In this document: one piece after another, positions 4,995-43,412 of the stretch | How positions within the stretch are numbered: position 1 is the first letter of the stretch | How the letters are laid out: the number at the start of each line of letters is the position of its first letter | Assembly (NCBI GenBank): GCA_031553685.1 | Contig: JAVBLE010000033.1 | Coordinates: 1 to 43,412 of the forward strand | Direction: 5' to 3' | DNA from: Paludibacteraceae bacterium | GTDB taxonomy: Bacteria > Bacteroidota > Bacteroidia > Bacteroidales > Paludibacteraceae | Length of the DNA stretch: 43,412 nucleotides | Program-made: the position numbers and the translations under genes | The notes under the pieces: generated by a model | Seen by the model: the letters and a program-made list of their open reading frames with translations, nothing else | What the model was told of the DNA's origin: nothing | Databases searched by the model: none

Positions 4995-5113
4995 TTGGGC
5001 GCGTCCCCGCCGCGTGCCCATTTTGGATGCGTAGGGGTAGACCTATGTGTCTGCCCGGTCGTTAAACCATTCGTACACAGGGTCGGGGTCGGGCTGTCCG
5101 CTATACTCCTCGC
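4995..5113. repeat. GC-rich repeat family 2, copy A (TTGGGCGCGTCCCC...CCCATTTTGGA...CGGGGTCGGGCTGTCCGCTATACTCCTCGC)
   Basis: Shares a 30-bp core with 21318-21349 and 39926-39956, and a 5' module with 39876-39915. It lies directly upstream of the minus-strand LRR gene start. Confidence 0.6.
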
Positions 5114-5250
5114 TCGCATCCCTATCCGGTTCGTAGAGCCGTGGCGCGCCGCGGCTCTACCACATCCCTATCCGGTTCGCTGCGGGGTGCCGCTCCCATC
5201 CCTCGCGCATCCGCCCTGCGGGACGGGTTGGCGCACCGTCCGTTATCCTA

Positions 5251-5294
5251 CCGTAGTAGGAGCGTTGCATGCAACGCCCCTACAATGCATCTCC
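5251..5294. repeat. REP element copy 4 (slightly diverged: CCGTAGTAGGAGCGTTGCATGCAACGCCCCTACAATGCATCTCC)
   Basis: Read directly; embedded in the GC-rich structured island 4980-5425. Confidence 0.75.
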
Positions 5295-5424
5295 GTACCC
5301 CGTATTATTCACCGCTACTCCTCGTTTCCCAGCGAGGAGTCCATGGCTTTGTGTTTCAAAACACCTTACCAAATCCCCCCTCGCTCGAAAGTGAAGGGGG
5401 AAACGAAGAGCGACAAGCGCTTAA

Positions 5425-6465
5425 TTATTTTTTATTAAAGTAATATCTAAGCCCTAATTGCAAATTACCCACTCCAATACCTTCCCTTTCGTCTTCTTCC
5501 AATTCAATCGTCGACTTATGTCCATTGGCTTCCATAGTCATTTCATTCAACGCCCCGGCTATAGCCGAATAGTTTAGTCCGATACCCCAATTCTTATCAA
5601 ACCGGTAATCAACACCCAGTGCGAAATAACCTCCAACAGTATTTCCGCTAAATGAGGCATTTATATTATTGTAATCCTTCAGAGTGAATTTTTCTTTAAA
5701 TCTGTTGTAACCTACACCTATCCCAAGATTGAATAACCACTTAGCATTGGCAGAGCTTAAACGAAGCATAAAAGCAGGTCCGACAAACAAAATCCGATCG
5801 TTAGGTTTTGCCAGAATTTCACCTTGATAATTTTGAAGGTCTTTGTCGGTATTGGCATTATACTGCGAATAAACAAGGCGCATACCGATATAATCAGTAA
5901 AATAATAATCGCCAAAAATATCAAAACTCCATCCGTTCATTAAATCTTCAAACACTGCTCTTTGTTGAGGCGAAAGATTCGTGGCTATTTCGGCAGTACG
6001 CCAGCCCCAACCTGCGTTAAAACCTAATGTAGCTACAGGAGGTTTCGCTTTTACGGGAGAGGAACTGATAGATTTTTGCCAATATTGTGTATCAGCAGCC
6101 AATGTAGAATCATTAGCAGTTGCGTTTATGCGCAACACAGTAGCGTCGAATTGATGACACGAACTTTTAAAAGAAGGTCGCAAATGGTTGTTTATATACA
6201 CGGCATTTCCCCCCAATTTGCGTGCTTCTTGTTTTACTAAATTTATCATGGTGGATGAATCGCATTTCATGGTAGAACCGCCATCTTTAGCCGAAACATT
6301 TCCCAATGTAACCCACTTGGAAGGCACTTTGTTACTGTCTTTATAAACAGCAACAAATGCAGTATCGTTTAACGCAGGATATTTCTTTAATACAGATGTA
6401 GTAATCTTTGGATTACATGCACAAAGTAAATAACCCATAGCAAAGAAGAAGATTAGCTTTTTCAT
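5425..6465 (-). CDS. Lipoprotein with C-terminal outer-membrane beta-barrel-like domain (hypothetical)
   Basis: ATG at 6465 gives MKKLIFFFAMGYLLCAC (lipobox Cys). The C-terminal half has alternating hydrophobic beta-strand character and ends ...LGLRYYFNKK. The upstream TTG extension is unlikely. Confidence 0.5.
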   Translation of the reverse strand: MKKLIFFFAMGYLLCACNPKITTSVLKKYPALNDTAFVAVYKDSNKVPSKWVTLGNVSAKDGGSTMKCDSSTMINLVKQEARKLGGNAVYINNHLRPSFKSSCHQFDATVLRINATANDSTLAADTQYWQKSISSSPVKAKPPVATLGFNAGWGWRTAEIATNLSPQQRAVFEDLMNGWSFDIFGDYYFTDYIGMRLVYSQYNANTDKDLQNYQGEILAKPNDRILFVGPAFMLRLSSANAKWLFNLGIGVGYNRFKEKFTLKDYNNINASFSGNTVGGYFALGVDYRFDKNWGIGLNYSAIAGALNEMTMEANGHKSTIELEEDEREGIGVGNLQLGLRYYFNKK

Positions 6466-6550
6466 AATAAGGTTCGGTTTTATTTTATAATAACACAAAA
6501 ATAAATTAAAACTTTATTAAATCGACAAAAACATATTACAAAATATCGAT

Positions 6551-6819
6551 TAACCTCAGTTCGATTAATCAAAAATTTACACAGAGAAATATTTTACTTT
6601 GATCAAAACCTTGTTTTTTAGATTGCACTTAGGCTAACTCAAGCTTTCAAAAGAGAAACACGGAGCTACACAGAGTGAAAAATCAAAGATTTTTCTCCTC
6701 TCTGTAGCTCTCTGTGAAGCTCGAATGCAATTTTCAAGAAAAAACCTCAGGTTAAAAACCAATCACAAGGTTTGAGATTACATTTTCTCTGTGTAAAATA
6801 ATAATCGAACTGAGGTTAT
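6551..6819. mobile_element. MITE-like long-hairpin element with about 38-bp imperfect terminal inverted repeats (TAACCTCAGTTCGATTA...TTTACACAGAGAAA)
   Basis: The left end 6551-6590 is the reverse complement of the right end 6781-6819. Nested inner inverted repeats (AAAACCTTG/CAAGGTTT; CTACACAGAG/CTCTCTGTAG) surround a GAAAAATCAAAGATTTTTC hairpin. A related copy is at 32295-32434. Confidence 0.5.
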
Positions 6820-6830
6820 TAAAATGAAAA

Positions 6831-7259
6831 TTAGGGCAAACGCACGAAATTTGCCCTAAAGTAAAAAACAGTCAGGGCTTCACTTTGAGTGAATCCCTGA
6901 CTTATCAAGAAATTACGGTTTATTCTCGGTGTTTTATGGTCTCGGATTTTCCGAATAGGAAAAACCTTGTTGTTTTTTGTTTTCGGAAATTCCGAACGGG
7001 CAAAACCTTGCACTTTTATAGTTTCGGAAATTCCGAACGGGCAAAAGCTTGTGTTTTTATCCTCTCGGTATTTCCGAATGAGCAAATACTCTCGCTTTTA
7101 TGCCTTCGGAATTTCCGAATGAATAAAAGCTCGGTGTTTTACGCTTCCGGAATTTCCGGATGGATTTTTACTGCTTATTTTGGCTTTTCGGAATTTCTTT
7201 TTATTGTCGGAGTAAAACTCCTTTTGAGTAAATTAGCAAATTTCGTGCGTTTGCCCTAA
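6831..7259. repeat. Composite element: 24-bp terminal inverted repeats (TTAGGGCAAACGCACGAAATTTGC) enclosing a terminator-like hairpin and seven tandem repeats of about 41 bp, each with a TTCGGAAATTCCGAA-type palindrome
   Basis: 6831-6854 is the reverse complement of 7236-7259. The array is at 6934-7222 (units start TTTTA..., end ...AAAACCTTG). Unit 6 has the compensatory variant TCCGGAATTTCCGGA. Confidence 0.6.
6871..6901. repeat. Hairpin GTCAGGGCTTCACTTTGAGTGAATCCCTGAC (second copy in opposite orientation at 41710-41740)
   Basis: 12-bp stem; flanked by an A/T run. On the minus strand it reads hairpin then TGTTTTTT. Confidence 0.5.
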
Positions 7260-7367
7260 ATGAAAATACAACACACCCATTAATTCGGAATTAATCGTTA
7301 ATTTTGTTCCTCAAAATAAATAATTCCGATTGTAAATTGTAAATCATAAAATAGTAAATACACCCCC

Positions 7368-9656
7368 ATGCCATTCGATTTACCCATTATCCAAAAATTC
7401 TACCACGAATTACCCAAAGCCATAACCAACGCCAAAGAGCAACTGTTGCGACCGCTCACATTAAGCGAAAAAATACTATACGCCCACCTGTCCAAAGAAA
7501 GTGAGGGGGTAACTCAAAGCTACCCCCTCATTAAACCCTATAAGCGTGGCTCGGACTATGTCCTTTTCGCCCCCGACCGCGTGGCGATGCAAGACGCCAC
7601 CGCACAAATGGCATTGCTCCAGTTTATGAACGCAGGAAAACCACGAACCGCCGTGCCCACTACCGTGCATTGCGACCACCTCGTGCAAGCCGACAACGGC
7701 ACACTCAAAGACCTGCCACGCGCACTCAAACAAAACGAAGAAGTATATAACTTCCTGCAAACCGTTTCGGCAAAATACGGCATTGGCTGCTGGAAAGCCG
7801 GAGCAGGTATTATTCACCAAGTGCTGTTGGAAAACTACGCTTTTCCGGGCGGAATGATGATTGGTACAGACTCGCACACCGTGAATGCCGGCGGATTGGG
7901 CATGATAGCCATTGGCGTAGGGGGTGCCGATGCTGTCGATGTGATGGTAGGCATGCCTTGGGAACTCAAAATGCCAAAGCTGATTGGCGTAAAACTAACC
8001 GGCAAACTCAGCGGCTGGGCAGCGCCCAAAGATGTGATACTGAAACTCGCCGGAATGCTTACCGTAAAAGGAGGAACAGGCTGTATTGTCGAATATTTCG
8101 GCGATGGCGCGCACACGCTTTCGTGCACCGGCAAAGCAACCATTTGCAATATGGGCGCCGAAATCGGAGCCACCACTTCTATCTTTGCCTACGATAAAAA
8201 AATGAGCGACTACCTTCGCGCCACCAAACGCAAAGAAATAGCCACCCTCGCTGATGCTGTTGCCGAACACCTGCAAGCCGATTTTGAAGTAGAGCAACAC
8301 CCCGAGAAATATTTCGACCAAGTCATCGAAATTAATCTGTCGGAAGTCGAACCCTATATCAATGGACCTTTTACGCCCGACTTGGCAACGCCGATTTCCG
8401 AATTTGCAGCATTTATCAAGGAAAATAATTATCCGCCCGTGCTCGAAGTCGGTCTGATTGGCTCGTGTACCAATTCGTCGTATCAGGATATGATGCGGGC
8501 GGCTTCGGTGGCTCGTCAGGCAAAAGACAAGAAGCTGGAGGTAAAAGCACAGTTTATCGTTTCGCCCGGTTCGGAGTTGGTGCGCTACACTGCCGAACGC
8601 GATGGGCTGTTGAACGATTTTAACAACATCGGGGCAATGCTTATGGCAAATGCCTGCGGTCCTTGTATCGGGCAATGGAACCGGCACAACAACCCCGACC
8701 GCGAAAACAGTATCATCACTTCGTTTAACCGCAACTTTGCCAAGCGAGCCGACGGAAACCCGAAAACACACAGTTTCGTAGCCTCGCCCGAAATCGTTAC
8801 CGCATTGACCATTGCCGGTTCAATGACATTCAATCCGCTCAAAGATTATTTAAAAAATACGGATGGCGAGTTCGTCATGCTCGACGAACCCCAAGGCGAC
8901 GAACTTCCTGCCAAAGGTTTTGATGCCGAAGATTTAGGTTTGATCGCACCCCCTGCTGATGGCAGTTTGATAGAAGTAACCGTAAACCCCGACAGCGACC
9001 GCCTGCAACTCCTTACGCCTTTTGCCGAGTGGGATGGCAACGAAATTCCTACCATGTCGCTGCTTATCAAAGCCAAAGGCAAATGCACCACTGACCATAT
9101 CAGCATGGCGGGCAAATGGCTCAACTATCGGGGGCATTTGGACAACATTTCCAACAACCTGCTGATCGGCGCTGTCAATGCCTTCAATGAAGAAACAAAC
9201 AAGGTGTACAACAGCATTTCCAATAAATTTGAGGCGGTGCCCGACTCTGCCCGTATCTATCAAAAAGCAAACATTCCAACCATCGTTATTGGTGATGAAA
9301 ACTACGGCGAAGGCTCCTCGCGCGAGCATGCCGCCATGGAACCCCGCCATTTGGGCGTGCGTGTGGTGTTGGTCAAATCCTTTGCCCGCATACACGAAAC
9401 CAACCTGAAAAAACAAGGTATGCTCGCCCTCACATTTGCCAACAAAGCTGATTACGACCTAATCCGCGAGGACGATACTTTTGAACTTTCCGGTTTAACG
9501 CACTTTGATCCAAATAAACCGTATTTTACCATGAAAATAAATCATATTGATGGAACAAGTAACATAATTCAAGTAAACCACACTTACAATCAAAGCCAGT
9601 TCGAGTGGTTCAAAGCCGGTAGTGCGTTGAATTTGATTCGGAAACAAAATGGATAA
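7368..9656 (+). CDS. acnA: Aconitate hydratase (aconitase family, about 760 aa)
   Basis: Fe-S ligand motifs [11 protein letters not shown] and [11 protein letters not shown], and the swivel domain region [14 protein letters not shown]. Confidence 0.92.
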
Positions 9657-9989
9657 ACCGCAAAGTTTACAAGAGTTTTTTTTGTTTTTTTATCTTAAAA
9701 AGGGTAACGATGCCAAAAATGGTTGGTGATTTTTAGAAAAATATTTTGTATAATTGCCTGGTAAAGTTGAAGAGGAAACGAGCTTTGTTGAGGAGCAACT
9801 CGTCAGCAATAAACTTTACGGATGTACAGTAAATAAGAAGGAGTAGTTTTACAACTGCTCCTTTCTCTATTTTATTGGTATCCTTTAATGGCTAAAAAAC
9901 CTATCTTTCATTGCTTTTGAAGAATAAATACCATTTGAAGGCGGACTTTTTACAATCCGCCTTCAGAATAAATTTTGAGGAAAAGTAAT

Positions 9990-24352: not shown

Positions 24353-25048
24353 CTACAACTCCCCAACATCCGCAAAACTATAATAATCATTCCGCCCGAC
24401 AATGATATGGTCAACCAAATTTATTTCGAGCGCCTGAAAGGCTTTTTGTAGTTTCTGTGTCAGTTGTTTGTCTTGCGGGCTGGGCTTCGTGCTTCCCGAA
24501 GGATGGTTGTGGCAAATGGCTACCAAAACAGCCATTTTATCCAATGCCGCTTTCAAAGCCATGCGAGTGTCAACACCGGTGCCATTTATCCCGCCCGAAC
24601 TCAGTTTTACCTGTCCCAATACTTTATTGGCATTATTAAGCAAAAGCAGCCAAAACTCCTCGTGTGGCAAATCGGACAGCAAGGGGTGAAACAACTCGAA
24701 AATATCACGGCTGGTGATTATTTGTTCGCGCTCGAGCGATTCGGCATGTTTGCGCCGCCTACCGAGTTCCAACGCTGCTACAATGGTAATGGCTTTTGCC
24801 TCGCCTACGCCTTTGAAATTGGCGATCAACTCTTCGATAGAAAAACGCCCCAACTCGTCCAGATTATCGTGTGCCGAACGGAGTATGCGCCGCGAAAGTT
24901 CCACCGCCGTTTCGTCCCTGTTGCCCGAACCGATCAGGATTGCCAGCAGTTCGGCGTCGGTCAGGCTGGAAATGCCGCGTTGCATTAGCTTTTCGCGCGG
25001 ACGGTCTTCTTCTGCCCATTGGGTGATGGTTAGGTGTTTTTCTTGCAT
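24353..25048 (-). CDS. radC: RadC-like JAB/MPN domain protein
   Basis: N-terminal helix-hairpin-helix region and JAMM motif HNHPSGSTKPSPQD. Confidence 0.9.
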   Translation of the reverse strand: MQEKHLTITQWAEEDRPREKLMQRGISSLTDAELLAILIGSGNRDETAVELSRRILRSAHDNLDELGRFSIEELIANFKGVGEAKAITIVAALELGRRRKHAESLEREQIITSRDIFELFHPLLSDLPHEEFWLLLLNNANKVLGQVKLSSGGINGTGVDTRMALKAALDKMAVLVAICHNHPSGSTKPSPQDKQLTQKLQKAFQALEINLVDHIIVGRNDYYSFADVGEL

Positions 25049-25743: not shown

Positions 25744-27417
25744 TTATAACAACTCTATTATTTTCTTAATAGCATCAAATAGCTTTACAACTCCATCCTT
25801 TATGTAAATATCATGATTAAGATACTGTCCATTATTTTTCTCATCCAAGATCCTTTTATCTGTATGAACAAAACCATTTCGTTTCCGGATTAATCGATAT
25901 ACTTCTTGTACAAATTTACCATCAGTCTGATTTAATTCTTGAAAATACAAACCTGCAAATTTTTGCCATTCGGGAGGTCTATCATTTGTGATTTTGGTAT
26001 TAGTATTTATATATTTTTCTTCATTCCATTCCCAATCAAGCAATAAATCCTTGTTGCATATTTCCCATGTTTTGTCTTGTGAATTGTATTGGATTAAATG
26101 TTTATTCACAAGTTCAATAACCATACAAAGTGTAATGTAAGAATAGGCAAACTGTGTCTTAGTTTTTGTAACTAAAATCATATCCCAAAATAATTGAAGT
26201 TGAGTTTTTAATTCTGATTTAAAATTAAAGGGATAGGTAAAACAATCAATTCGCTTTATTATTTCTTGGTAAGAAATATATAAAGTTTTAAGAAAGTTTC
26301 TCTCAAAGCAGTTTTTTACATCTTCTTTGAAGCGTAAATAATTTTGTTCTGAGAACTCATTAGAAAATCCAAATTCTGGTGACTCTTTCATGTAATAGCC
26401 ATCTGCACCAGCATCTAATAGAGCTTTCAAATTCCAAACCTTATTGGAGGCGGTGAAGATTATTGCTTGATAACCTTGATTAAGGGATTTGATTTTTTGT
26501 AAAACTTTCATTCCCGAGAAATCCTCTGGTTTCAATGTTTTATCTTCTTCTATTCCATTCAGGCGCAAATCTATCAAGTACAAATCAAAAGGTGTATTTT
26601 CAATCAAATTTTTACTTTCAACAGAAAGGTTATTATAATCGTTTACTTTTTCTTTGATAACAACAAAATCTTCAGTTGCTGAGGTTTTAAATACTTTTCG
26701 TAAAACTATTTCCCAGCCTTTATCAGCCTCATCATCAATTAATAAAACCTTTTTATTTGTGGCATTAATTTTATTTGGGTTTCCTACAGGGATTTTATCA
26801 ATAATTTTCAATAACGGAGGATTATGTTTTGATCTATCATAATTTAGTGCTGATATGTATTTAAAATATAACTTTGTTTTATCTTTTTCAAAGTTATTAT
26901 TTCCAAATAATGCGTTAGCATTGGCAGCCTTGTCCATACTATGTGCACCCCAAACATTTGCTAAAGAATGTCTTCCAGTAACTTCATCAGGTAGAATTTT
27001 TATAATATTGAGAAAGCCCATTTTATATTCATCAATAAGAATACCGTTATTCGCGGATATTTCAATTCCCATTTTATCAAAATCAGAGAAACCAATACCT
27101 TTTGTTGCAAGAATTTGACTCCAAATCTTTGTATCAATCATTATTGATTTTAATGAAGATATGCTTGCAAATAATATTGGCAACAAAGCTTTTTCTTTTA
27201 AATATTCGATAGAAAGCCTTATGTGTAACCCAATTTTTAAAGACAGAATTGAATCATTAGGAATCTCAATGATCAATTTATCTATTTCATTTTTGTTAAA
27301 AATCGAAATTAACCAATTATGAATTTCATAATCATTTGTCAAGTTTGGAATTTCAATAAAATTGAATCCAGATTCCTTTGCAGTATTACTATTACCAAGT
27401 ATAAATATTTTCTCCAT
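25744..27417 (-). CDS. Response-regulator receiver (REC) domain protein with C-terminal HEPN-like (RNxxxH) domain
   Basis: The REC signature KKVLLIDDEAD...DLYLIDLRLNG...AIIFTASNKVWNLKALLDAGADGYYMK falls at about aa 213-330. The C-terminus has ...VYRLIRKRNGFVHTDKRILDE, matching the Rx4-6H motif (here R-N-xxx-H). The N-terminal roughly 210 aa are unassigned. The start overlaps the upstream gene by 26 nt. Confidence 0.6.
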   Translation of the reverse strand: MEKIFILGNSNTAKESGFNFIEIPNLTNDYEIHNWLISIFNKNEIDKLIIEIPNDSILSLKIGLHIRLSIEYLKEKALLPILFASISSLKSIMIDTKIWSQILATKGIGFSDFDKMGIEISANNGILIDEYKMGFLNIIKILPDEVTGRHSLANVWGAHSMDKAANANALFGNNNFEKDKTKLYFKYISALNYDRSKHNPPLLKIIDKIPVGNPNKINATNKKVLLIDDEADKGWEIVLRKVFKTSATEDFVVIKEKVNDYNNLSVESKNLIENTPFDLYLIDLRLNGIEEDKTLKPEDFSGMKVLQKIKSLNQGYQAIIFTASNKVWNLKALLDAGADGYYMKESPEFGFSNEFSEQNYLRFKEDVKNCFERNFLKTLYISYQEIIKRIDCFTYPFNFKSELKTQLQLFWDMILVTKTKTQFAYSYITLCMVIELVNKHLIQYNSQDKTWEICNKDLLLDWEWNEEKYINTNTKITNDRPPEWQKFAGLYFQELNQTDGKFVQEVYRLIRKRNGFVHTDKRILDEKNNGQYLNHDIYIKDGVVKLFDAIKKIIELL

Positions 27418-28102
27418 ACTGTAAATAACTTTCTATTATAGATTGTATTTTCTCTCTAAATTCACTTATTGTTACCGGATTTTTCTCTAAATCATCTAAA
27501 AAAACTTCGTAACTAATATTTGAAAACGATAATTTGATAAATTCCTGAAATTGCTTTGGCAAATTCTTCAAATCCAATTTATCGGTGTTCTTCTGTGAGA
27601 TAATAGCTTCCAACACAATATTTCCAATATTGCGCACTTCTTTTGCTTGAAAATTCTTTCCCCAAGCTAAAATTTGTAACTCAATTTCTCCTGTATTTTT
27701 ATAGTATTCTACAAAAACTTTCAGATGTTCATAGAAAAGGTTCTTTTTTATTCCTCGGATAAAATGTGGATTTTCTACTTCTGGTTCTCCCATATTGTTA
27801 CTAAACAATACCAAAGGAATTTTATCTCCAAAATCTGCAATTTCTTCCTTAATCTTTCTAACATTGCTTGTAGAACCAGATAAAAATCCTTTTTCCACAT
27901 CCCAATCTTCGGTCGTTATGTGCAAAAGAATACATTTCGCATTTTGAAGAAATTTCAAATGTAAAATATCATTTGCCTTTTCACGCTTTTCAATTCGTTC
28001 CACAGAAGTAAGATATCCATTAAAAGTACCATCTTCTATAAAGTTAATATTGTATTGATTCTGACGCTGGCTATTTTGATTATCGTCAATTAAGTAAATC
28101 AT
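27392..28102 (-). CDS. Pseudo-receiver (REC-like) domain protein plus helical C-terminal domain (hypothetical)
   Basis: MIYLIDDNQ..., ...CILLHITTEDWD..., IPLVLFSNN..., IRGIKK resembles the REC beta1/beta3/beta4/beta5 pattern with a degenerate acceptor site. Its ATG overlaps the stop of the upstream gene (TAATG). Confidence 0.45.
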   Translation of the reverse strand: MIYLIDDNQNSQRQNQYNINFIEDGTFNGYLTSVERIEKREKANDILHLKFLQNAKCILLHITTEDWDVEKGFLSGSTSNVRKIKEEIADFGDKIPLVLFSNNMGEPEVENPHFIRGIKKNLFYEHLKVFVEYYKNTGEIELQILAWGKNFQAKEVRNIGNIVLEAIISQKNTDKLDLKNLPKQFQEFIKLSFSNISYEVFLDDLEKNPVTISEFREKIQSIIESYLQYGENIYTW

Positions 28103-29790
28103 TATTGATAATAAAATGTAAGTATATGTGTAAAGCCAATTACTTCCGAAGCCTTTATTTCTTCTTGTTCTATAGTTCCTTTTTCGCGAAGAATATTAAT
28201 TTTTATAGGCTTGTCATCAATTTTAGTAATAACTGACCAATGGCAATATCCTTGAAGGTGTTCTGCTATTTTACCCATATTGCCCTTGTCTAATGATAGC
28301 CATTCTTTTATTAAAATATCCGCATCTTTGGTTGGATAAGAATTGTGGTGTGTAATAATAACTTGACTTACAAAAAAGTCGTCATCTGTAGTGCGTTTGT
28401 ATTCAACAGATATTTGCCTTTTGTCAGGTGTATTACTACGCTTTTGTATTTCTTCAAAAATTGTTTCCAAAGCCGCTTTAAATTCACCTACATGTGTGTA
28501 GAAATCGGCTTTTGACAATTTCATTGTTTTTATATCAAAAGTGTTTTCAGAAAACACTTTATTGATAAGTGTTTCTAAATTAGGTGATTCAATACGGGTA
28601 GTTCGTCTAAAATCTTTTATGACTTCTGCAAATTGAGTATGTCTTATTGGATGCAATTTATTGCTTTTCGTTTCTTTCCATTCCGCAGATGACCATGCAT
28701 TTGTAATTTCTTTGGCATTGTATTGATTGTTAAAAATAGTCAATTTTGATTTTTGCTCAAATGCAAATTGAGTCAATAAGTCTTTTAAAGTTTTGGGTAT
28801 TTCTAGTTGATCAAAACTTTCGGTACAAACTTTTCTTGCTTGTGCTAAAAATGAATCCATATCAAAATCACCGTTTTCGTCAAAATCGTGTGTTAGGTAT
28901 TTCAATCCATCACGCTGATTGAATAGAGACATAAATTGAGCTACATCTTTAGGATTGCCTTTTTCTCCACGCATAATGGCTTTCTTGAATTGTAGCTCTT
29001 CAATTTCTTTCTCAAGATTGGCTATATCCTGCTTAAATTCGTCTATCTGTGTTTCTAATTTCAATATTTGTTCATCTATCTGTTCATATTTACTTTCATC
29101 TTGTAGCATTTCTTCTTTGATTGGAAGAATTCTGCTAAACCTGCTCCATTCACGAGCATTCTTATAGGCTCCTAAACTTGATTCTGGAACATACAAAGGA
29201 AAGTTATAAAAATGATATGATTTGTCATTTTTACGAAATGTTTCAGAAGATATAATTTGTGGAGTACTTCTTCTATTAATAATATATGCAAGATTCGCAT
29301 TGTTATAAAACAAGTTTTTACCAAGTGATTCTACGCTTTCAGGTATTGTAATAGTTGTCAGAGAAACACAACCCCAAAAAGCACCTTCGCCAATTTTTAT
29401 AATACTATTAGGCATTTCAACAGTTTTTAATCCAGAACACTTATTGAAGGCATATTCTCCAATAGTTACTACACTATTGGGAATTTCAATGGATTCCAAT
29501 CCCGAACAATTCATAAAAGCACCATACTCAATATTATTAACAGTATTAGAGATAGATACAGATGTTACCCCCATACAATCTAAAAATGCTAATTGCCCAA
29601 TATTTAAAACTCCTTGATTTACTATTATTTTTGTAATATTCTTGCCATACCAAGGCACCTTACTACTATTGAAAAAATCTCTCATTTTCCCTTCTCCACT
29701 AATAGTAAGTGTAGTGCCATTGAGTGAAGCAATTACATCACTTGCATTTTCAGTTCCACAATCCCAAGTTTGTATATTTGTATTTTTCAT
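28102..29790 (-). CDS. BspA-type leucine-rich-repeat (LRR_5) protein with central coiled coil and an unassigned roughly 300-aa C-terminal domain
   Basis: ATG at 29790 (MKNTNIQTW). Repeats IEIPNSVVTIGEYAFNKCSGLKTVEMPNSIIKIGEGAFWGCVSL. Coiled coil YEQIDEQILKLETQIDEFKQDIANLEKEIEELQ. The TTG-started extension to 29835 is unlikely. Confidence 0.65.
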   Translation of the reverse strand: MKNTNIQTWDCGTENASDVIASLNGTTLTISGEGKMRDFFNSSKVPWYGKNITKIIVNQGVLNIGQLAFLDCMGVTSVSISNTVNNIEYGAFMNCSGLESIEIPNSVVTIGEYAFNKCSGLKTVEMPNSIIKIGEGAFWGCVSLTTITIPESVESLGKNLFYNNANLAYIINRRSTPQIISSETFRKNDKSYHFYNFPLYVPESSLGAYKNAREWSRFSRILPIKEEMLQDESKYEQIDEQILKLETQIDEFKQDIANLEKEIEELQFKKAIMRGEKGNPKDVAQFMSLFNQRDGLKYLTHDFDENGDFDMDSFLAQARKVCTESFDQLEIPKTLKDLLTQFAFEQKSKLTIFNNQYNAKEITNAWSSAEWKETKSNKLHPIRHTQFAEVIKDFRRTTRIESPNLETLINKVFSENTFDIKTMKLSKADFYTHVGEFKAALETIFEEIQKRSNTPDKRQISVEYKRTTDDDFFVSQVIITHHNSYPTKDADILIKEWLSLDKGNMGKIAEHLQGYCHWSVITKIDDKPIKINILREKGTIEQEEIKASEVIGFTHILTFYYQ

Positions 29791-29816
29791 AAATAAATTG
29801 GTTTTAAAAGTTTTTA

Positions 29817-29867
29817 TTTTTGTTTCACACTGCAAAACTACAAGTTATCTGTGCATTCTTTCTGCAC
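29817..29867. promoter_or_regulatory. 51-bp direct repeat copy 1 (TTTTTGTTTCACACTGCAAAACTACAAGTTATCTGTGCATTCTTTCTGCAC) in the promoter region of the LRR/REC/HEPN operon
   Basis: 47 of 51 nt identical to 30161-30211. It lies 27-77 nt upstream of the operon ATG. Confidence 0.6.
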
Positions 29868-29892
29868 TGTTATGATTTTATGTAGCGAATCT

Positions 29893-30039
29893 TTAATTTT
29901 CATCGTTATCTTCGTCATAATCATCGTCATCATAATCCCGCTCATTCAAGGAATCCAAATATTTGTCTTCCAAATAATCCATGTAGTCTTGTGGATCAGA
30001 AAATCCATCATCCATCATTAAGTCTGAAAATCCGCTCAT
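29893..30039 (-). CDS. 48-aa highly acidic peptide (MSGFSDLMMDDGFSDPQDYMDYLEDKYLDSLNERDYDDDDYDEDNDEN)
   Basis: Translated by hand from the minus strand. It is below the 60-aa cutoff of the ORF track. It sits between the two 51-bp direct repeats, with a nested hairpin (30060-30135) upstream. Confidence 0.35.
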   Translation of the reverse strand: MSGFSDLMMDDGFSDPQDYMDYLEDKYLDSLNERDYDDDDYDEDNDEN

Positions 30040-30160
30040 AGTGTTTGTTTTTAGAGGTTAAATTAAGCCAACCGGAAGGATTAAAATCAAATCCGCTATG
30101 GGAAAGATTTGATTTTACGCGATTGGCTTAATTAAATGTTTTTATAATTCTTGTTACTTG

Positions 30161-30211
30161 TTTTTGTTTGACACTGCAAAACTACAAACTATCTGTGCAC
30201 TCTTTCTGCAC
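30161..30211. promoter_or_regulatory. 51-bp direct repeat copy 2, 53-103 nt upstream of the WYL regulator gene
   Basis: TTTTTGTTTGACACTGCAAAACTACAAACTATCTGTGCACTCTTTCTGCAC. Confidence 0.6.
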
Positions 30212-30263
30212 AAATGTAAGAAATATTTTGTTCCTTTGTATTGGACTGAAAAATAAATAAATT

Positions 30264-31283
30264 ATGGCAACCAATAAAAATGCACAAGCTCGTTACAGGA
30301 TACTTGATAATTGTTTTCGTAATAATGGGCGAAGATATTTTATCGAAGACTTAATTTCGGAATGTAATAAAAAATTGGCGGAAATTGACCCCGATTCTAA
30401 AGGTATCAGTCGCCGACAGATTTTTGATGACATTGCGTTTATGGAAAGTTCCGAAGGTTGGGAAATTGATTTATTAAGAGAAAAAGATGGGAAAAGGGTG
30501 TATTATTGTTATGCTGATACTTCTTTTTCTATCAACAATATGCCATTGACAGAATCGGATATTAACCGATTACAAACCGCACTGCAAACCTTTTCACAAT
30601 TCAAAGGGATGCCTCAATTTGAATGGATGTATGAGCTTTTGCCCAAACTGAAACGGGGAAGTTCTGATGTGTATTCTCCCGAGATTATGGAATTTGAGAC
30701 AAATCAGGATCTAAAAGGTATTGAACATATCGGTACGCTTTATGATGCCATCCTTTATAAAAAAACATTGAGAGTTGATTATCTGCAATCATTTAAAGAT
30801 AAATTGCAACTAATCATTCATCCATACTATTTGAAACAATACAATACCCGGTGGTTTTTGTTCGGTTGTAATTCTGAAAATGGGAAATATGATTGGAATC
30901 TTCCATTGGACAGAATCATTGATATAAAAGAAATTCATAAACCATATATTCCTAATACGGTAATTGATTGGAATGAATATTTTGATGATATAATAGGAGT
31001 AACAAAACCGGAAAGTTCCGGAATAGAAGAAATCACACTCCATTTTTATGGAAAAACAGGACACTATATTGAGTCAAAGCCAATTCATCCTTACCAAAGG
31101 CACAAATGGTTAAGCTCAGAAATACTTGAGGTTAACTTGGAGTTAATTATTAATTACGAACTAGAACGGCTTATTCTATCGTATGCCGATAGTGTAAAAG
31201 TGATTCAACCTCAGTCTTTAGTTGAACAGATAAAAGAACGCTTATCTAAAGGTGTTTATCAATATGATTCACCTATCTATTAA
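30264..31283 (+). CDS. wHTH-WYL-WCX transcriptional regulator (BrxR/CapW/PafBC-like)
   Basis: WYL domain signature IIHPYYLKQYNTRWFLFGCNSENGKYDWNLPLDRIIDI, preceded by an N-terminal HTH region (YRILDNCFRNNGRRYFIEDLI). It is divergent from the LRR/REC/HEPN operon. Confidence 0.78.
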   Translation: MATNKNAQARYRILDNCFRNNGRRYFIEDLISECNKKLAEIDPDSKGISRRQIFDDIAFMESSEGWEIDLLREKDGKRVYYCYADTSFSINNMPLTESDINRLQTALQTFSQFKGMPQFEWMYELLPKLKRGSSDVYSPEIMEFETNQDLKGIEHIGTLYDAILYKKTLRVDYLQSFKDKLQLIIHPYYLKQYNTRWFLFGCNSENGKYDWNLPLDRIIDIKEIHKPYIPNTVIDWNEYFDDIIGVTKPESSGIEEITLHFYGKTGHYIESKPIHPYQRHKWLSSEILEVNLELIINYELERLILSYADSVKVIQPQSLVEQIKERLSKGVYQYDSPIY

Positions 31284-31302: not shown

Positions 31303-31329
31303 AGTTATTCGGATTTTCCGAACAACTGA
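31303..31329 (+). terminator. Hairpin CAGTTATTCGGATTTTCCGAACAACTG 20 nt after the WYL gene stop
   Basis: Same TTCGGAwwTTCCGAA palindrome type as the tandem array at 6934-7222. Confidence 0.45.
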
Positions 31330-31501
31330 CAGTTCATTCAATTTTCTTCAAAAAATTATTTTGACAAATACTTACCATGCTCTTATTGTTTTGTGCTTTT
31401 TTAGGTATACATGTCAAAAAAGGTTGCTAAAACTAATCTTTAACGCCATTGCAAAAGCAGTTTCAGTTTTATAAATTGAAACCGTTTTCAATTTTATTAA
31501 T

Positions 31502-32148
31502 ATGAATAAAAAAAATGCTGGGTTTGTGGTAGTTCCTCTGTCATCAAATGGGGAACTCGTTGTGGAAAACAACGGTTTAAATGTAAAGAATGCGATGCTC
31601 TGACAACATGGACAAACAAAGGAGTTTCATCATCTAATCGTTTTATATGGTTTCGCCGTTGGATTGTAGGGAAACAAACTTTTCCCGAATTAGTTTCTCA
31701 AAGCGGTTATAGAGTACAGATGTGTCAATTCCATCAAATAAAGATTATTCAGCGTTATTTAACAAAGAAGCCTGATTTACAGGCAGGCAAAGAGTTGTTA
31801 GAACTTGTCAAGTTATTGACTCAAACGGATAAAGAAAGTTTTCTTCTCAGCTTTGCTTGCTGGCATGAGAAATGGGATGAATTTTTGCGAGAACGCTCAA
31901 AGGACAGGCTAACTGGAAAGACTCATTATATTCATAAAAGATTGCGAAGTGCCTATTTGAGTTTAAAACATAATATGCCTTATTTGTGGACTTGGTCTGA
32001 TTATATTCAGATAGGAATACCCAATACCAATAATGTTTTGGAAGGGAAGTTTGCCGATTTAAAAACCAAATTGAGGAATCATAACGGACTATCCAAAAGA
32101 ACTCGTGAGGTCTTTATTGATCACTACTTTAAACAAACATTCCGTTAA
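31502..32148 (+). mobile_element. IS1595/IS1016-like transposase gene with a frameshift in an A8 run (probable pseudogene or slippage site)
   Basis: ATG at 31502 (MNKK) is in frame 2. Immediately after the A8 run (31508-31515), frame 1 encodes the zinc ribbon CWVCGSSSVIKWGTRCGKQRFKCKECD, continuing into the 31720..32148 ORF (...NVLEGKFADLKTKLRNHNGLSKRTREVF...). One extra A would fuse the frames. Confidence 0.6.
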
Positions 32149-32186
32149 ACTCTCGGTGGAATATTCCACCGAGAGTTTAACGGAAT
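32139..32186. repeat. 48-bp perfect palindrome (ATTCCGTTAAACTCTCGGTGGAAT | ATTCCACCGAGAGTTTAACGGAAT) spanning the transposase stop codon, followed by two 22-bp direct repeats (32188-32209, 32229-32250)
   Basis: Read directly. Confidence 0.8.
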
Positions 32187-32294
32187 CTCATCCTCACTTT
32201 TGAACATTAGTGTAAATCAGGTGCGTTTTCATCCTCACTTTTGAACATTAAACCGCCTTTTTACATTACTTTTGAAGAATATTGAAAACTGGAA

Positions 32295-32434
32295 TTTTAC
32301 ACAGAGGAAAATGTATTTTGTTTAAAAATATTCAATTGATAATAAGGCTGTTAGTTCGAACATTCGCTTAGAGAAAAATGCAGAGTTTCCCAGAAGCTGA
32401 AAAATCGAAGATTTTTCTATTCTCTGTGTAAAAT
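32295..32434. mobile_element. MITE-like element with perfect 12-bp terminal inverted repeats TTTTACACAGAG, related to 6551-6819
   Basis: Shares the core hairpin GAAAAATCGAAGATTTTTC and the AGTTCGA motif with the 6.5-kb copy. Confidence 0.5.
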
Positions 32435-32455
32435 AAATATAAACAAACTTTACCA

Positions 32456-39875: not shown

Positions 39876-39956
39876 TTGGGCGTGCCCCCTCAAAGCCCTA
39901 TTTTGGAAAACATACCAATACAGCTCGGGGTCGGGCTATCCGCTGTACTCCTCGCC
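39876..39956. repeat. GC-rich repeat family 2, copy C
   Basis: TTGGGCGTGCCCCC...CCCTATTTTGGA...CGGGGTCGGGCTATCCGCTGTACTCCTCGCC; upstream of the minus-strand PhoH gene. Confidence 0.55.
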
Positions 39957-40054
39957 ACCTACAATTCTTATCACACAAAGGGAAGCAAAACCGTAGTTAG
40001 CCCCTCTCCTGTGGAGAGGGGTTGGGGAGAGGTGGCTGCGGGATGTCGCTACAA

Positions 40055-40183
40055 TAGCGAAGCATCACGAACACCAAAAATAATTATCTGTGAGTAATAG
40101 CGAAGCATCACGAACACCAAAAATAATTATCTGTGAGTAATAGCGAAGCATCACGAACACCAAAAATAATTATCTGTGAGTAA
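40055..40183. repeat. Perfect 3 x 43-bp tandem repeat (TAGCGAAGCATCACGAACACCAAAAATAATTATCTGTGAGTAA)
   Basis: Read directly; units at 40055, 40098 and 40141. Confidence 0.9.
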
Positions 40184-40400
40184 TCCCTCACGCAACGCGG
40201 ATAACCGGCAGTTATCCCGTTGAAGAACAGGTGCAGCGCACCGTAATATAAGTGTGTCGGTACTCTGTACCTCAATTTCTTATGCTGATATAATAGCTAC
40301 AAAGATTGCGGTGCTCTGCACCTGAATGACAAACAATAAAACAACTTTAAATAAAATCACTCCCTTTAACCAAAAACGGGGAGGGGTTAATTAAAACAAC

Positions 40401-41669: not shown

Positions 41670-41709
41670 AGAGTTTTTGGTGTTTTACCGGTAATGAAAA
41701 AAATGCTAA

Positions 41710-41740
41710 GTCAGGGCTTCACTCAAAGTGAAGCCCTGAC
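41710..41740 (+). terminator. Hairpin GTCAGGGCTTCACTCAAAGTGAAGCCCTGAC after folC (copy of 6871-6901 in opposite orientation)
   Basis: 12-bp perfect stem, followed by TGTTTAAAAAAAA, which is not a canonical T-run. Confidence 0.45.
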
Positions 41741-41972
41741 TGTTTAAAAAAAACTGTTTTAATTTTATTGATAATTAATAAATATTTTTTACATTTGCGC
41801 ACATTAATTAAGTATTCAAAATATTGAAGCACGCCACACATATTATCTCTTTACCTTGTGTTTTTAACTAAAATAACTTGCACGCTTCACAATCTCTTTA
41901 AACTATACACTTATAAATCTCACAGCATTTTTTATTTGTAAAATTTTAATAACAATTTAAATTATATTCAAA

Positions 41973-42854: not shown

Positions 42855-42873
42855 TTTGACTATTTAAAAATGT

Positions 42874-42961
42874 CTGAACCATGATTTTTAAAGATTTATA
42901 GGATTGTCAATACTATAATACTTGGCAATCTTGATAAGCCTACGAAAATCATGGTTCAGAC
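42874..42961. repeat. 88-bp hairpin element (17-bp inverted repeats GTCTGAACCATGATTTT / AAAATCATGGTTCAGAC) preceding tandem array 2
   Basis: Read directly. Confidence 0.5.
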
Positions 42962-42980
42962 TTCTTGCAATATCGGAGCT

Positions 42981-43220
42981 TTTACCCATTCCGCAATGCG
43001 GAAACCCTAAAACCTCAAAGTAAAACCCTTTCGCCGTTAGCGAAGACCTAAAACCCGAAACATTTACCCATTCGCCAATAGCGGAAGCAAAAAAGCACAA
43101 GAATTTACCCCTCCGCTAATGGCGAAAGCATAAAACCTCAAACTTTTACTCCTCCGCCAAAAGCGGAAGAGGAAAACCACAAAGGTTAAACCTTTCGCCA
43201 AAAGCGAAGACGAAAAAGCG
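42981..43220. repeat. Tandem array 2: six units of about 41 bp, each TTTACCC-[CGC-loop-GCG hairpin]-AAAACC
   Basis: Units start at 42981, 43021, 43063, 43104, 43144 and 43186. Hairpins are CCGCAATGCGG, CGCCGTTAGCG, CGCCAATAGCG, CCGCTAATGGCG, CCGCCAAAAGCGG and CGCCAAAAGCG. The architecture parallels array 1 at 6934-7222. Confidence 0.6.
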
Positions 43221-43412
43221 TTACAGTTTAGAAGAAACGGCATTGCATAGCCCTTTGCGTTAGCTTGGAGAATAAAAAATAAAATGATTATCCGCTATTT
43301 TACCCCCAACCCCCTAAAGGGGGCTCGCAATCAACAACAGACTGTTTGTGTTGGGTAAGTCCCCTTTAGGGGATTTAGGGGTGGTTGGAAGCATCTTCTT
43401 AGAAATTAGGGG

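Follow-up and report, generated by a model that had tools for sequence, protein, structure and literature searches.

A 429-bp stretch of non-coding DNA in a Paludibacteraceae bacterium (Bacteroidota) is probably a non-autonomous MITE (miniature inverted-repeat transposable element), i.e., a protein-free element bounded by terminal inverted repeats (TIRs), which carries an internal minisatellite of hairpin-forming 41-bp units. It lies at positions 6831-7259 of the analysed window, the whole stretch of 43,412 nt presented above (contig JAVBLE010000033.1, assembly GCA_031553685.1), to which all coordinates refer. As expected for a MITE, its TIRs are complementary at 24 of 24 positions, a duplication flanks it, and there is no transposase gene within its 429 bp. 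The element is fairly ordinary selfish DNA, neither a new gene nor a defence system.

Evidence for an insertion

The TIR sequence TTAGGGCAAACGCACGAAATTTGC (beginning TTAGGGCAAACG) stands in inverted orientation at the two ends, where 0 matches were expected by chance. Directly outside of both TIRs follows the direct repeat ATGAAAA, a candidate target-site duplication, which extends to AAATGAAAAT (6822-6831) when an overlap of 1-2 nt with the TIR ends is allowed. The chance frequency of a matching 7-mer flanking a 429-bp span is 4e-4 over the window. TIRs with a flanking duplication are the signature of DDE-type transposition. The first-pass annotation, made from the sequence alone, had described the 24-bp terminal inverted repeats, which are indeed 100% complementary, as a mere boundary of the array; taken together with the flanking direct repeat, they instead identify all 429 bp as a transposon-like insertion.

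Comparison with related genomes gave a breakpoint at the right end of the element. The closest available relative (L052, L053) has an 89% identical aconitase gene, and its upstream region of 340 bp is without an array. The blastn homology between the window and L052 starts at 7264, i.e., 5 nt past the right TIR and within the right copy of the duplication. An array is also absent upstream of the aconitase gene in two relatives in which this gene is 78% identical. The organism is also present in the Logan assemblies of SRR23967709, and these lent independent support. Logan contigs are built with k=31, all of their 31-mers are distinct, and linked contigs overlap by 30 nt (PMC12424806). Contig L001, which carries an identical aconitase gene, has as its first 30 nt exactly the final 30 nt of the element (7230-7259, AAATTAGCAAATTTCGTGCGTTTGCCCTAA), and the contig on the opposite side, L093, ends at 6811, inside the end of a neighbouring, separate MITE. 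The start of L001, exactly 30 nt inside the right end, implies a repeated terminus: in SRR23967709 the terminal 30-mer would lead into more than one flank, with the graph branching at the end of the element. The spacer moreover already hosts the neighbouring MITE, which has IS5-like ends, and other repeat families occur in the window.

Several points weigh against the interpretation as a mobile element. The left junction is not comparable with that of L052, in which the upstream gene differs. The claim of multiple copies comes from one assembly-graph inference, and the break in L001 could instead reflect population heterogeneity at a single locus. A scan of the 43-kb window to 9 mismatches found no further copy of the TIR; there was likewise no copy of an exact TIR 23-mer in metagenome contigs or of a 21-mer in viral contigs, no match of the whole element to plasmids (blastn), and no other copy of TIR, leader or tail in any of the 95 fetched loci (blastn-short). 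A transposase with matching ends was not found in the window either; an IS256-type remnant at 31503-32148, considered as the mobilising insertion sequence (IS), was rejected because its inverted repeats differ. Furthermore, all 38 other tested arrays of this class (27 from genomes, 11 from metagenomes) are without flanking TIRs, showing that an array can exist without them, and the element may have formed around, or captured, a pre-existing array. Finally, each TIR is itself a palindrome, and its TAGGG...CCCTA foot resembles the repetitive extragenic palindromic (REP) sequences beside a REP-associated tyrosine transposase (RAYT) gene of the window. Since neither a second TIR copy nor a parent IS was found, we infer, rather than observe, that the element belongs to a family.

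Anatomy of the element and its array

The array itself agrees with what had been read from the letters, a 41-bp hairpin repeat with the palindrome TTCGG-N5-CCGAA, and consists of six clear units and one degenerate unit (Table 1). Tandem Repeats Finder reported it at 6925-7163 with a period of 41, 5.8 copies, 73% matches and a score of 192, and a repeat search returned five to six in-register copies at a spacing of exactly 41 bp. With up to 2 mismatches, TTCGGAAATTCCGAA occurs 11 times in the window, compared to 0.2 expected occurrences. Variation among the units is diffuse, being highest at unit positions 5-10 and 34-41.

A second array of the same family in the window has the frame TTTTAT-GCn-TTCGs-N5-sCGAA-nGGGnAAAA-nnTTG, in which the innermost stem pair is C:G in place of G:C, a compensatory change. 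This array has no TIR and shares no similarity with the leader or tail of the first. Across the 12 units of both arrays, pairing in the 5-bp stem is intact in 95% of the cells, three of the five stem pairs are changed on both sides, and the covariation score was reached by none of 500 shuffles. One unit of the first array, TCCGGAATTTCCGGA at 7146-7160, carries the symmetric double substitution to which the first-pass annotation had drawn attention. Judged by these sequence patterns, the palindrome has been retained beyond the expectation for drift, as had been proposed there; the innermost stem pairs of arrays in other Bacteroidota point in the same direction (see below).

Between the left TIR and the array lies a leader with a hairpin, and a tail of 40 nt separates the array from the right TIR. 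The leader hairpin had been described as terminator-like (6871-6901). The hairpin is real, at 6870-6902, but a terminator role on the plus strand did not hold up: no T-run follows there, whereas on the minus strand GTTTTTTACTTT comes next, making it terminator-like, by its sequence, in the minus direction only. A perfect copy of this hairpin recurs at 41709-41741, just past a Mur-ligase-family (folC-like) gene, with a perfect 15-bp stem (AGTCAGGGCTTCACT-CAA-AGTGAAGCCCTGACT); the shared hairpin represents either a further small family of repeats or a terminator module that has been reused.

The open reading frames (ORFs) inside the element are all repeat-derived and gave zero Pfam matches; for a 124-aa ORF across the array there was neither a Pfam match nor a record in the protein collection. 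A motif scan did not find the Bacteroidota -7 promoter motif TAnnTTTG inside the element. Such motifs sit just outside of it for both flanking genes, at 6496-6503 on the minus strand and at 7299-7306 on the plus strand. Because both fall outside, the element appears to occupy a dispensable stretch between two promoters. In a scan for sigma-70 promoters and terminators, promoter-like sites were no commoner than in shuffled sequence. A search of the window against Rfam 15 gave no match at gathering score, and the E-value mode returned noise only. The spacer hosting the element measures 900 bp and is flanked by a divergent beta-barrel gene and the aconitase gene; with a DnaJ-domain gene and the gene for alanyl-tRNA synthetase in the neighbourhood, this is a chromosomal housekeeping context.

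Table 1. Features of the element, its surroundings and the second array
Feature	Position	Strand	Details
Outer-membrane beta-barrel gene	5425-6465	minus	
Adjacent separate MITE	6551-6818		17-nt TIRs, subterminal inverted repeats TTTACACAGAGAAA, 3-bp ATT direct repeat
Left direct-repeat copy (candidate target-site duplication)	6824-6830		core ATGAAAA
Left TIR	6831-6854 (24 nt)	plus	within 29-nt hairpin 6831-6859: TTAGGGCAAA-CGCACGAAA-TTTGCCCTAA
Internal leader hairpin	6870-6902	minus	AGTCAGGGCTTCACT-TTG-AGTGAATCCCTGACT
Six in-register 41-bp units	6932-7177	plus	TTTTAT-GCn-TTCGG-N5-CCGAA-nGGGCAAAA-nCTTGnnn
Degenerate seventh unit	7178-7218	plus	TTTTGGCTTTTCGGAATTTC half retained; 3' palindrome arm gone
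Right TIR	7236-7259 (24 nt; hairpin 7233-7259)	minus	reverse complement of left hairpin, inner arm minus 2 nt
Right direct-repeat copy	7260-7266		ATGAAAA
Likely aconitase -7 promoter element	7299-7306	plus	TAATTTTG; outside the element; conserved in relative L052
Aconitase gene	7368-9656	plus	
Second array, same family	42972-43217	minus	six 41-bp units, palindrome TTCGC-N5-GCGAA

Related arrays in Bacteroidota

Scanning 185,579 reference genomes with a periodic three-unit pattern yielded 49 loci. The AT-rich, non-coding matches came nearly all from Bacteroidota, namely Bacteroidaceae, Prevotellaceae, Tannerella, Dysgonamonadaceae, Draconibacterium, Maribellus, Marinifilum and Odoribacter, and altogether dozens of 41/42-bp hairpin arrays were detected across genomes and metagenomes of this phylum. 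Their period is 41, less often 42; the unit sequence is lineage-specific, the frame is common to them. A single metagenome-assembled genome contained at least seven loci bearing one identical unit, and a two-unit scan of metagenome contigs recovered units closely related to that of the window itself (TTTTATGC-TTTCGGAAATTCCGAAA-GGCAAAA).

In 23 distinct consensus units from Bacteroidota arrays, the innermost pair is complementary in every case (15 G:C, 8 C:G), versus 50% from the pattern alone, and the stem pairs outside the search pattern are complementary in 11-14 of the 23. The search patterns demanded a GC-cored palindrome and a 39-43 bp period; both the preferred period of 41-42 bp and some of the stem complementarity are therefore partly ascertained, from which the 23/23 pair and the pairs outside the pattern are exempt.

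One metagenomic locus, at which the array lies between the stop codon of a gene and a strong bidirectional terminator, has two units in L077 and about six in L075, L089 and L091, with flanks that are 95% identical. As the unit count thus differs between samples at one locus, the arrays behave as variable-number tandem repeats. One array that seemed to be flanked by TIRs (L023) was rejected as such, being an inverted array. The positions of the arrays are mixed: some lie upstream of genes, others between divergent promoters and still others after 3' ends, in both orientations, and no consistent orientation relative to genes was found across the loci.

At nine loci (L005, L006, L015, L017, L020, L024, L040, L043 and L045) a distance of 46-275 nt separates the array from the 5' end of a DUF6261-family gene. 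These loci belong to several Bacteroidota families, with the array in either orientation, and by eye the association looks commoner than chance for such a small family. DUF6261 proteins are alpha-helical, and none is encoded in the window; they gave no PHROGs match, and their sequence matches in the PDB were insignificant (E >= 0.036).

A broader interpretation, which is conceivable yet which we hold only tentatively, regards the 41/42-bp hairpin minisatellites as an undescribed, phylum-wide class of structured repeats with a real function, with the TIR element as one vehicle spreading them. Such a class may be the direct-repeat counterpart of REP sequences and bacterial interspersed mosaic elements (BIMEs), with a frame of T-tract, 6 nt and GC-cored hairpin, palindromes upheld by compensatory substitutions, copy numbers that differ among strains and repeated occurrence 5' of DUF6261-family genes, and may provide structure-specific protein-binding arrays or tunable regulatory spacers.

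Alternative explanations

The palindromic nature of the TIRs suggests a REP- or REPIN-like origin, in which the terminal hairpins would be inverted REP palindromes moved as single-stranded DNA by a RAYT (Y1/HUH) and the array would be cargo or later growth; a REPIN is reportedly defined by Bertels and Rainey (2011) as two inverted REPs. The window encodes a RAYT at 1820-2395, which is flanked and interrupted by GTAG-headed palindromes (GTAGGGGCGTTGCATGCAACGCCCCTAC), and the TIR hairpin, which has a TTAG head, shares the TAGGG...CCCTA foot of the window's REPs. However, this head is neither GTAG nor CGTC, the array units have no such head, and the RAYT-adjacent REPs differ from the TIR in both stem and loop. 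The two arms are 381 nt apart, far beyond described REPINs, and the RAYT is 4.4 kb distant. To our knowledge, Y1/HUH transposition does not generate target-site duplications, so that the 7-10 bp duplication present here is unexpected. We therefore consider this origin unlikely.

Unlikely to the same degree is a functional array of DNA-level protein-binding sites (centromere-like, bound by a nucleoid protein, or an operator), with one dimer per palindrome and TIRs that are incidental. The spacing of 41-42 bp, about four helical turns, would place all sites on one face of the DNA, the T-tracts are phased at 41 bp, and the unit, a 7-1-7 palindrome at fixed 41-bp spacing, resembles sopC of the F plasmid. 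Palindromy is preserved across arrays without a G.U strand bias, and the nine loci 5' of DUF6261-family genes would fit as well. On the other hand, the palindrome varies among genomes and even between the two arrays of the window, which makes one conserved binding protein unlikely; from locus to locus the arrays differ in how they are oriented and placed with respect to genes, and no partition or DNA-binding gene is adjacent in this housekeeping context. A sopC-like plasmid centromere or an iteron array was rejected, with no partition or initiator gene adjacent and no plasmid match. Since the array is missing upstream of aconitase in three relatives, a role as a conserved aconitase regulator was rejected, and one as a gene-specific operator is unlikely.

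The absence of TIRs from the arrays elsewhere (0/38) and the failure to find further TIR copies in the searched collections would also fit an immobile composite, i.e., a resident, neutral minisatellite bracketed by two independently gained palindromic repeats, with the direct repeat arising by chance in AT-rich DNA. The genome is indeed rich in small palindromic repeats of several families. Yet the direct repeat abuts both ends exactly, at the low chance frequency given above, individual hairpins are without duplicated flanks, and it is at the right TIR's outer edge that both the homology breakpoint in L052 and the start of the Logan contig fall. Such a composite is thus quite improbable.

A transcribed structured RNA, either a multi-hairpin small RNA (sRNA), as the first-pass annotation had considered, or a CRISPR- or TIGR-like guide array cut into RNAs of about 41 nt, is very unlikely: the predicted fold is very stable on either strand (z about -12), the stem covaries and unit positions 5-10 and 34-41 are the most variable, but strong folding follows trivially from TIRs and palindromes, neither an Rfam match at gathering score nor a TAnnTTTG motif inside the element was found, unique spacers are absent, and no cas or Nop-domain gene occurs among the scanned window proteins. 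Mismatches on the TTTT-first strand comprise 32 G.U versus 58 A.C; as G.U is not favoured, there is no sign of an RNA from this strand. A CRISPR array, already discounted in the earlier reading of the sequence, was rejected on account of the contiguous units without unique spacers and of the lack of a Cas domain among the scanned window proteins, and a TIGR-Tas array (whose units measure about 36 nt and hold two variable spacers, and which comes with a Nop-domain Tas protein) on account of the period of 41, the diffuse variation and the lack of a Nop-domain protein in the window.

Proposed origin and implications

Under the interpretation as a MITE with an internal hairpin minisatellite, the element would have inserted into a neutral stretch between divergent promoters, duplicating 7-10 bp of the target; the empty-site junction before insertion would be expected to read TTATTAAAATGAAAATACAACACACCC. 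A duplication of 7-10 bp would fit several DDE families, among them IS256, ISAs1, IS4 and IS1. The ends of the element would be recognised by a transposase encoded elsewhere in the genome and acting in trans, and the array would be either an original part of the element or captured by it. The copy-number differences at one locus in related metagenomes suggest that the array most likely expands and contracts via replication slippage or unequal recombination. Palindromy may be kept through selection on a hairpin or cruciform, or through symmetric binding. Should the element affect its neighbours, for instance by termination, DNA bending or protection of mRNA 3' ends, this would be incidental, as for REP, BIME and BOX elements.

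The striking array would thus be mobile or selfish DNA between two promoters, and in our analyses there was no sign of it being a gene, a guide-RNA array or a dedicated aconitase regulator, nor does the interpretation make it an sRNA gene or a defence array. For annotation, the consequence is that 6831-7259 should be labelled as repeat/MITE and ORFs called across the array should be dropped. The 41-bp hairpin frame recurs in many Bacteroidota, among them gut Bacteroidaceae and Prevotellaceae as well as Tannerella and Draconibacterium. Arrays of this kind interrupt assemblies from short reads, differ in copy number and could act as strain markers. If the association with DUF6261 or the fixed period of about four helical turns does reflect a function, the class merits experimental study. 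The main remaining interest lies in what maintains and spreads 41-bp hairpin arrays across Bacteroidota.

Other repeats and genes in the window

The MITE-like element noted 5' of the array in the first-pass annotation is real (6551-6818), with 17-nt TIRs and subterminal inverted repeats. Its TIR core ACCTCAGTTCGA is one mismatch away from the published TIR of Porphyromonas gingivalis ISPg3 (IS5 family; PMC4596501 table), and a partial related copy lies at about 32290-32445. The single palindrome reported after the WYL gene also exists (31308-31322, CAGTTATTCGGATTTTCCGAACAACTG, 1-2 mismatches), but its link to the array unit is probably spurious: a hidden Markov model of the unit gave E=0.37, and there is no further similarity. 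It resembles paired palindromes in rhuM-like genes that are apparently internally deleted (L072, 21-76; L092, 3567-3622), where TTCGGAAATTCCGAA encodes ...VRKFRT...; the WYL-adjacent palindrome may be a gene remnant rather than an array unit.

The RAYT gene (1820-2395) matched NCBIfam NF047646 (REP_Tyr_transpos) with E=2e-16, under the curated cut-off, and Pfam Y1_Tnp weakly; its product has an HUH-like NHIHG motif. Identical copies of the GTAG-type REP GTAGGGGCGTTGCATGCAACGCCCCTAC lie at 1771 and 2443, a third within the RAYT ORF at 2099, where it encodes ...SVGALHATPLHAT..., and a fourth at 5256 (5256-5283). In the two relatives with 78% identical aconitase, terminator hairpins upstream of this gene (L094, about 9820-9860; L095, about 9818-9865) carry GCGTTTGCC...GGCAAACGC; the 9-mer that they share with the TIR core, GGGCAAACGC, is probably a coincidence. 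The second array is flanked by two further inverted-repeat structures (43303-43380 and 42873-42960), of which one is CCCCCAACCCCCTAAAGGGGGCT / AGTCCCCTTTAGGGGATTTAGGG and the other a 17-bp inverted repeat (GTCTGAACCATGATTTT / AAAATCATGGTTCAGAC) directly after the Big_2-domain gene.

Upstream of the Mur-ligase-family gene, a 43-bp tandem repeat (AATAGCGAAGCATCACGAACACCAAAAATAATTATCTGTGAGT, 40053-40184) occurs in 3.1 copies that are 100% identical; it is non-palindromic, unrelated to the 41-bp family and looks very recently expanded. The intergenic regions 5000-5400 and 39900-40050 are GC-rich mosaic repeats (the genome has 40% GC) with the common motif GGGTCGGGGTCGGGCT(G/A)TCCGCT(A/G)TACTCCTCGC and several short GC-rich hairpins, and constitute one more family of dispersed repeats. 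The IS256-family transposase, of the Zn-binding variant, is a remnant or carries a frameshift (31503-32186): the ORF at 31720-32148 matches positions 164-301 of NF048019 (E=9e-61), and the N-terminal zinc-ribbon part was read by eye, unscored, in another frame from 31503. A perfect 48-bp palindrome lies at 32139-32186, and candidate IS ends are 31337-31353 and 32270-32286. A probable conflict or defence cluster (25744-31283) comprises a 'conflict context' histidine kinase with BspA-type leucine-rich repeats (28102-29835), an iREC/receiver protein (25744-27417) and, between these two, an unannotated ORF of 236 aa, as well as a RadC-like JAB protein (24353-25048) and a WYL-WCX regulator (30264-31283).

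Comparison with known elements

In the sopC site of the F plasmid, a unit of about 43 bp that contains a short inverted repeat recurs in tandem at a spacing of about four helical turns; the site is plasmid-borne, located beside sopAB, and has a single conserved binding sequence. The array studied here has comparable spacing and inverted repeats, but no partition genes and variable palindromes. REP, BIME and REPIN sequences are extragenic palindromes, often clustered, whose stems are kept by compensatory change and which are associated with RAYTs; their clusters usually alternate in orientation, have a GTAG or CGTC head and show no target duplication. In contrast, the 41-bp units are all direct and carry neither of these heads. 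In Streptococcus pneumoniae, BOX elements are intergenic and non-coding, with the modular structure boxA-(boxB)n-boxC, in which the 45-nt boxB is repeated in tandem 0-8 times; they have inverted-repeat-like ends and a stable fold and occur in more than 100 copies per genome. The modular organisation with a tandem-repeat interior is similar, whereas the Firmicutes host, the unrelated sequence and the many copies set BOX apart.

Within the Bacteroidota, the BrickBuilt elements of P. gingivalis are composed of 23-nt imperfect repeats with leader and tail and are always intergenic (PMC4596501). They have IS5-type TIRs of 12 nt, variable or absent duplications and reported promoter activity (PMC4596501). 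Thus, they resemble our element as an intergenic minisatellite within a MITE with leader and tail, and differ in the 23-nt unit and the IS5-type TIRs.

MITEPgRS (MITE464), also from P. gingivalis, is a TIR-bounded, intergenic, non-coding element (Naito et al. 2008, PMC2575886; Klein et al. 2015, PMC4596501). Inside it, repeats with a reported length of 41 nt form a tandem array of variable copy number (up to 14); there are about 20 copies per genome, with extra Repeat A/B modules inside both ends (PMC2575886, PMC4596501). Its TIRs (GAGACTGTTGCA) match the IS5-family element ISPg1 (PMC4596501). The IS5-family TIR of the MITEPgRS/BrickBuilt type (GAGACC...TTGCA) is not matched by the TIR described here (PMC4596501 table), which begins TTAGGGCAAACG and is unrelated to GAGACTGTTGCA, and one copy was seen in our case. 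Nevertheless, likened by its reported repeat length, MITEPgRS is the nearest described element, sharing the phylum, the presence of TIRs, the internal array and the 41-nt period. We therefore file the element at 6831-7259 as a MITE with an internal minisatellite, outside the MITEPgRS family.

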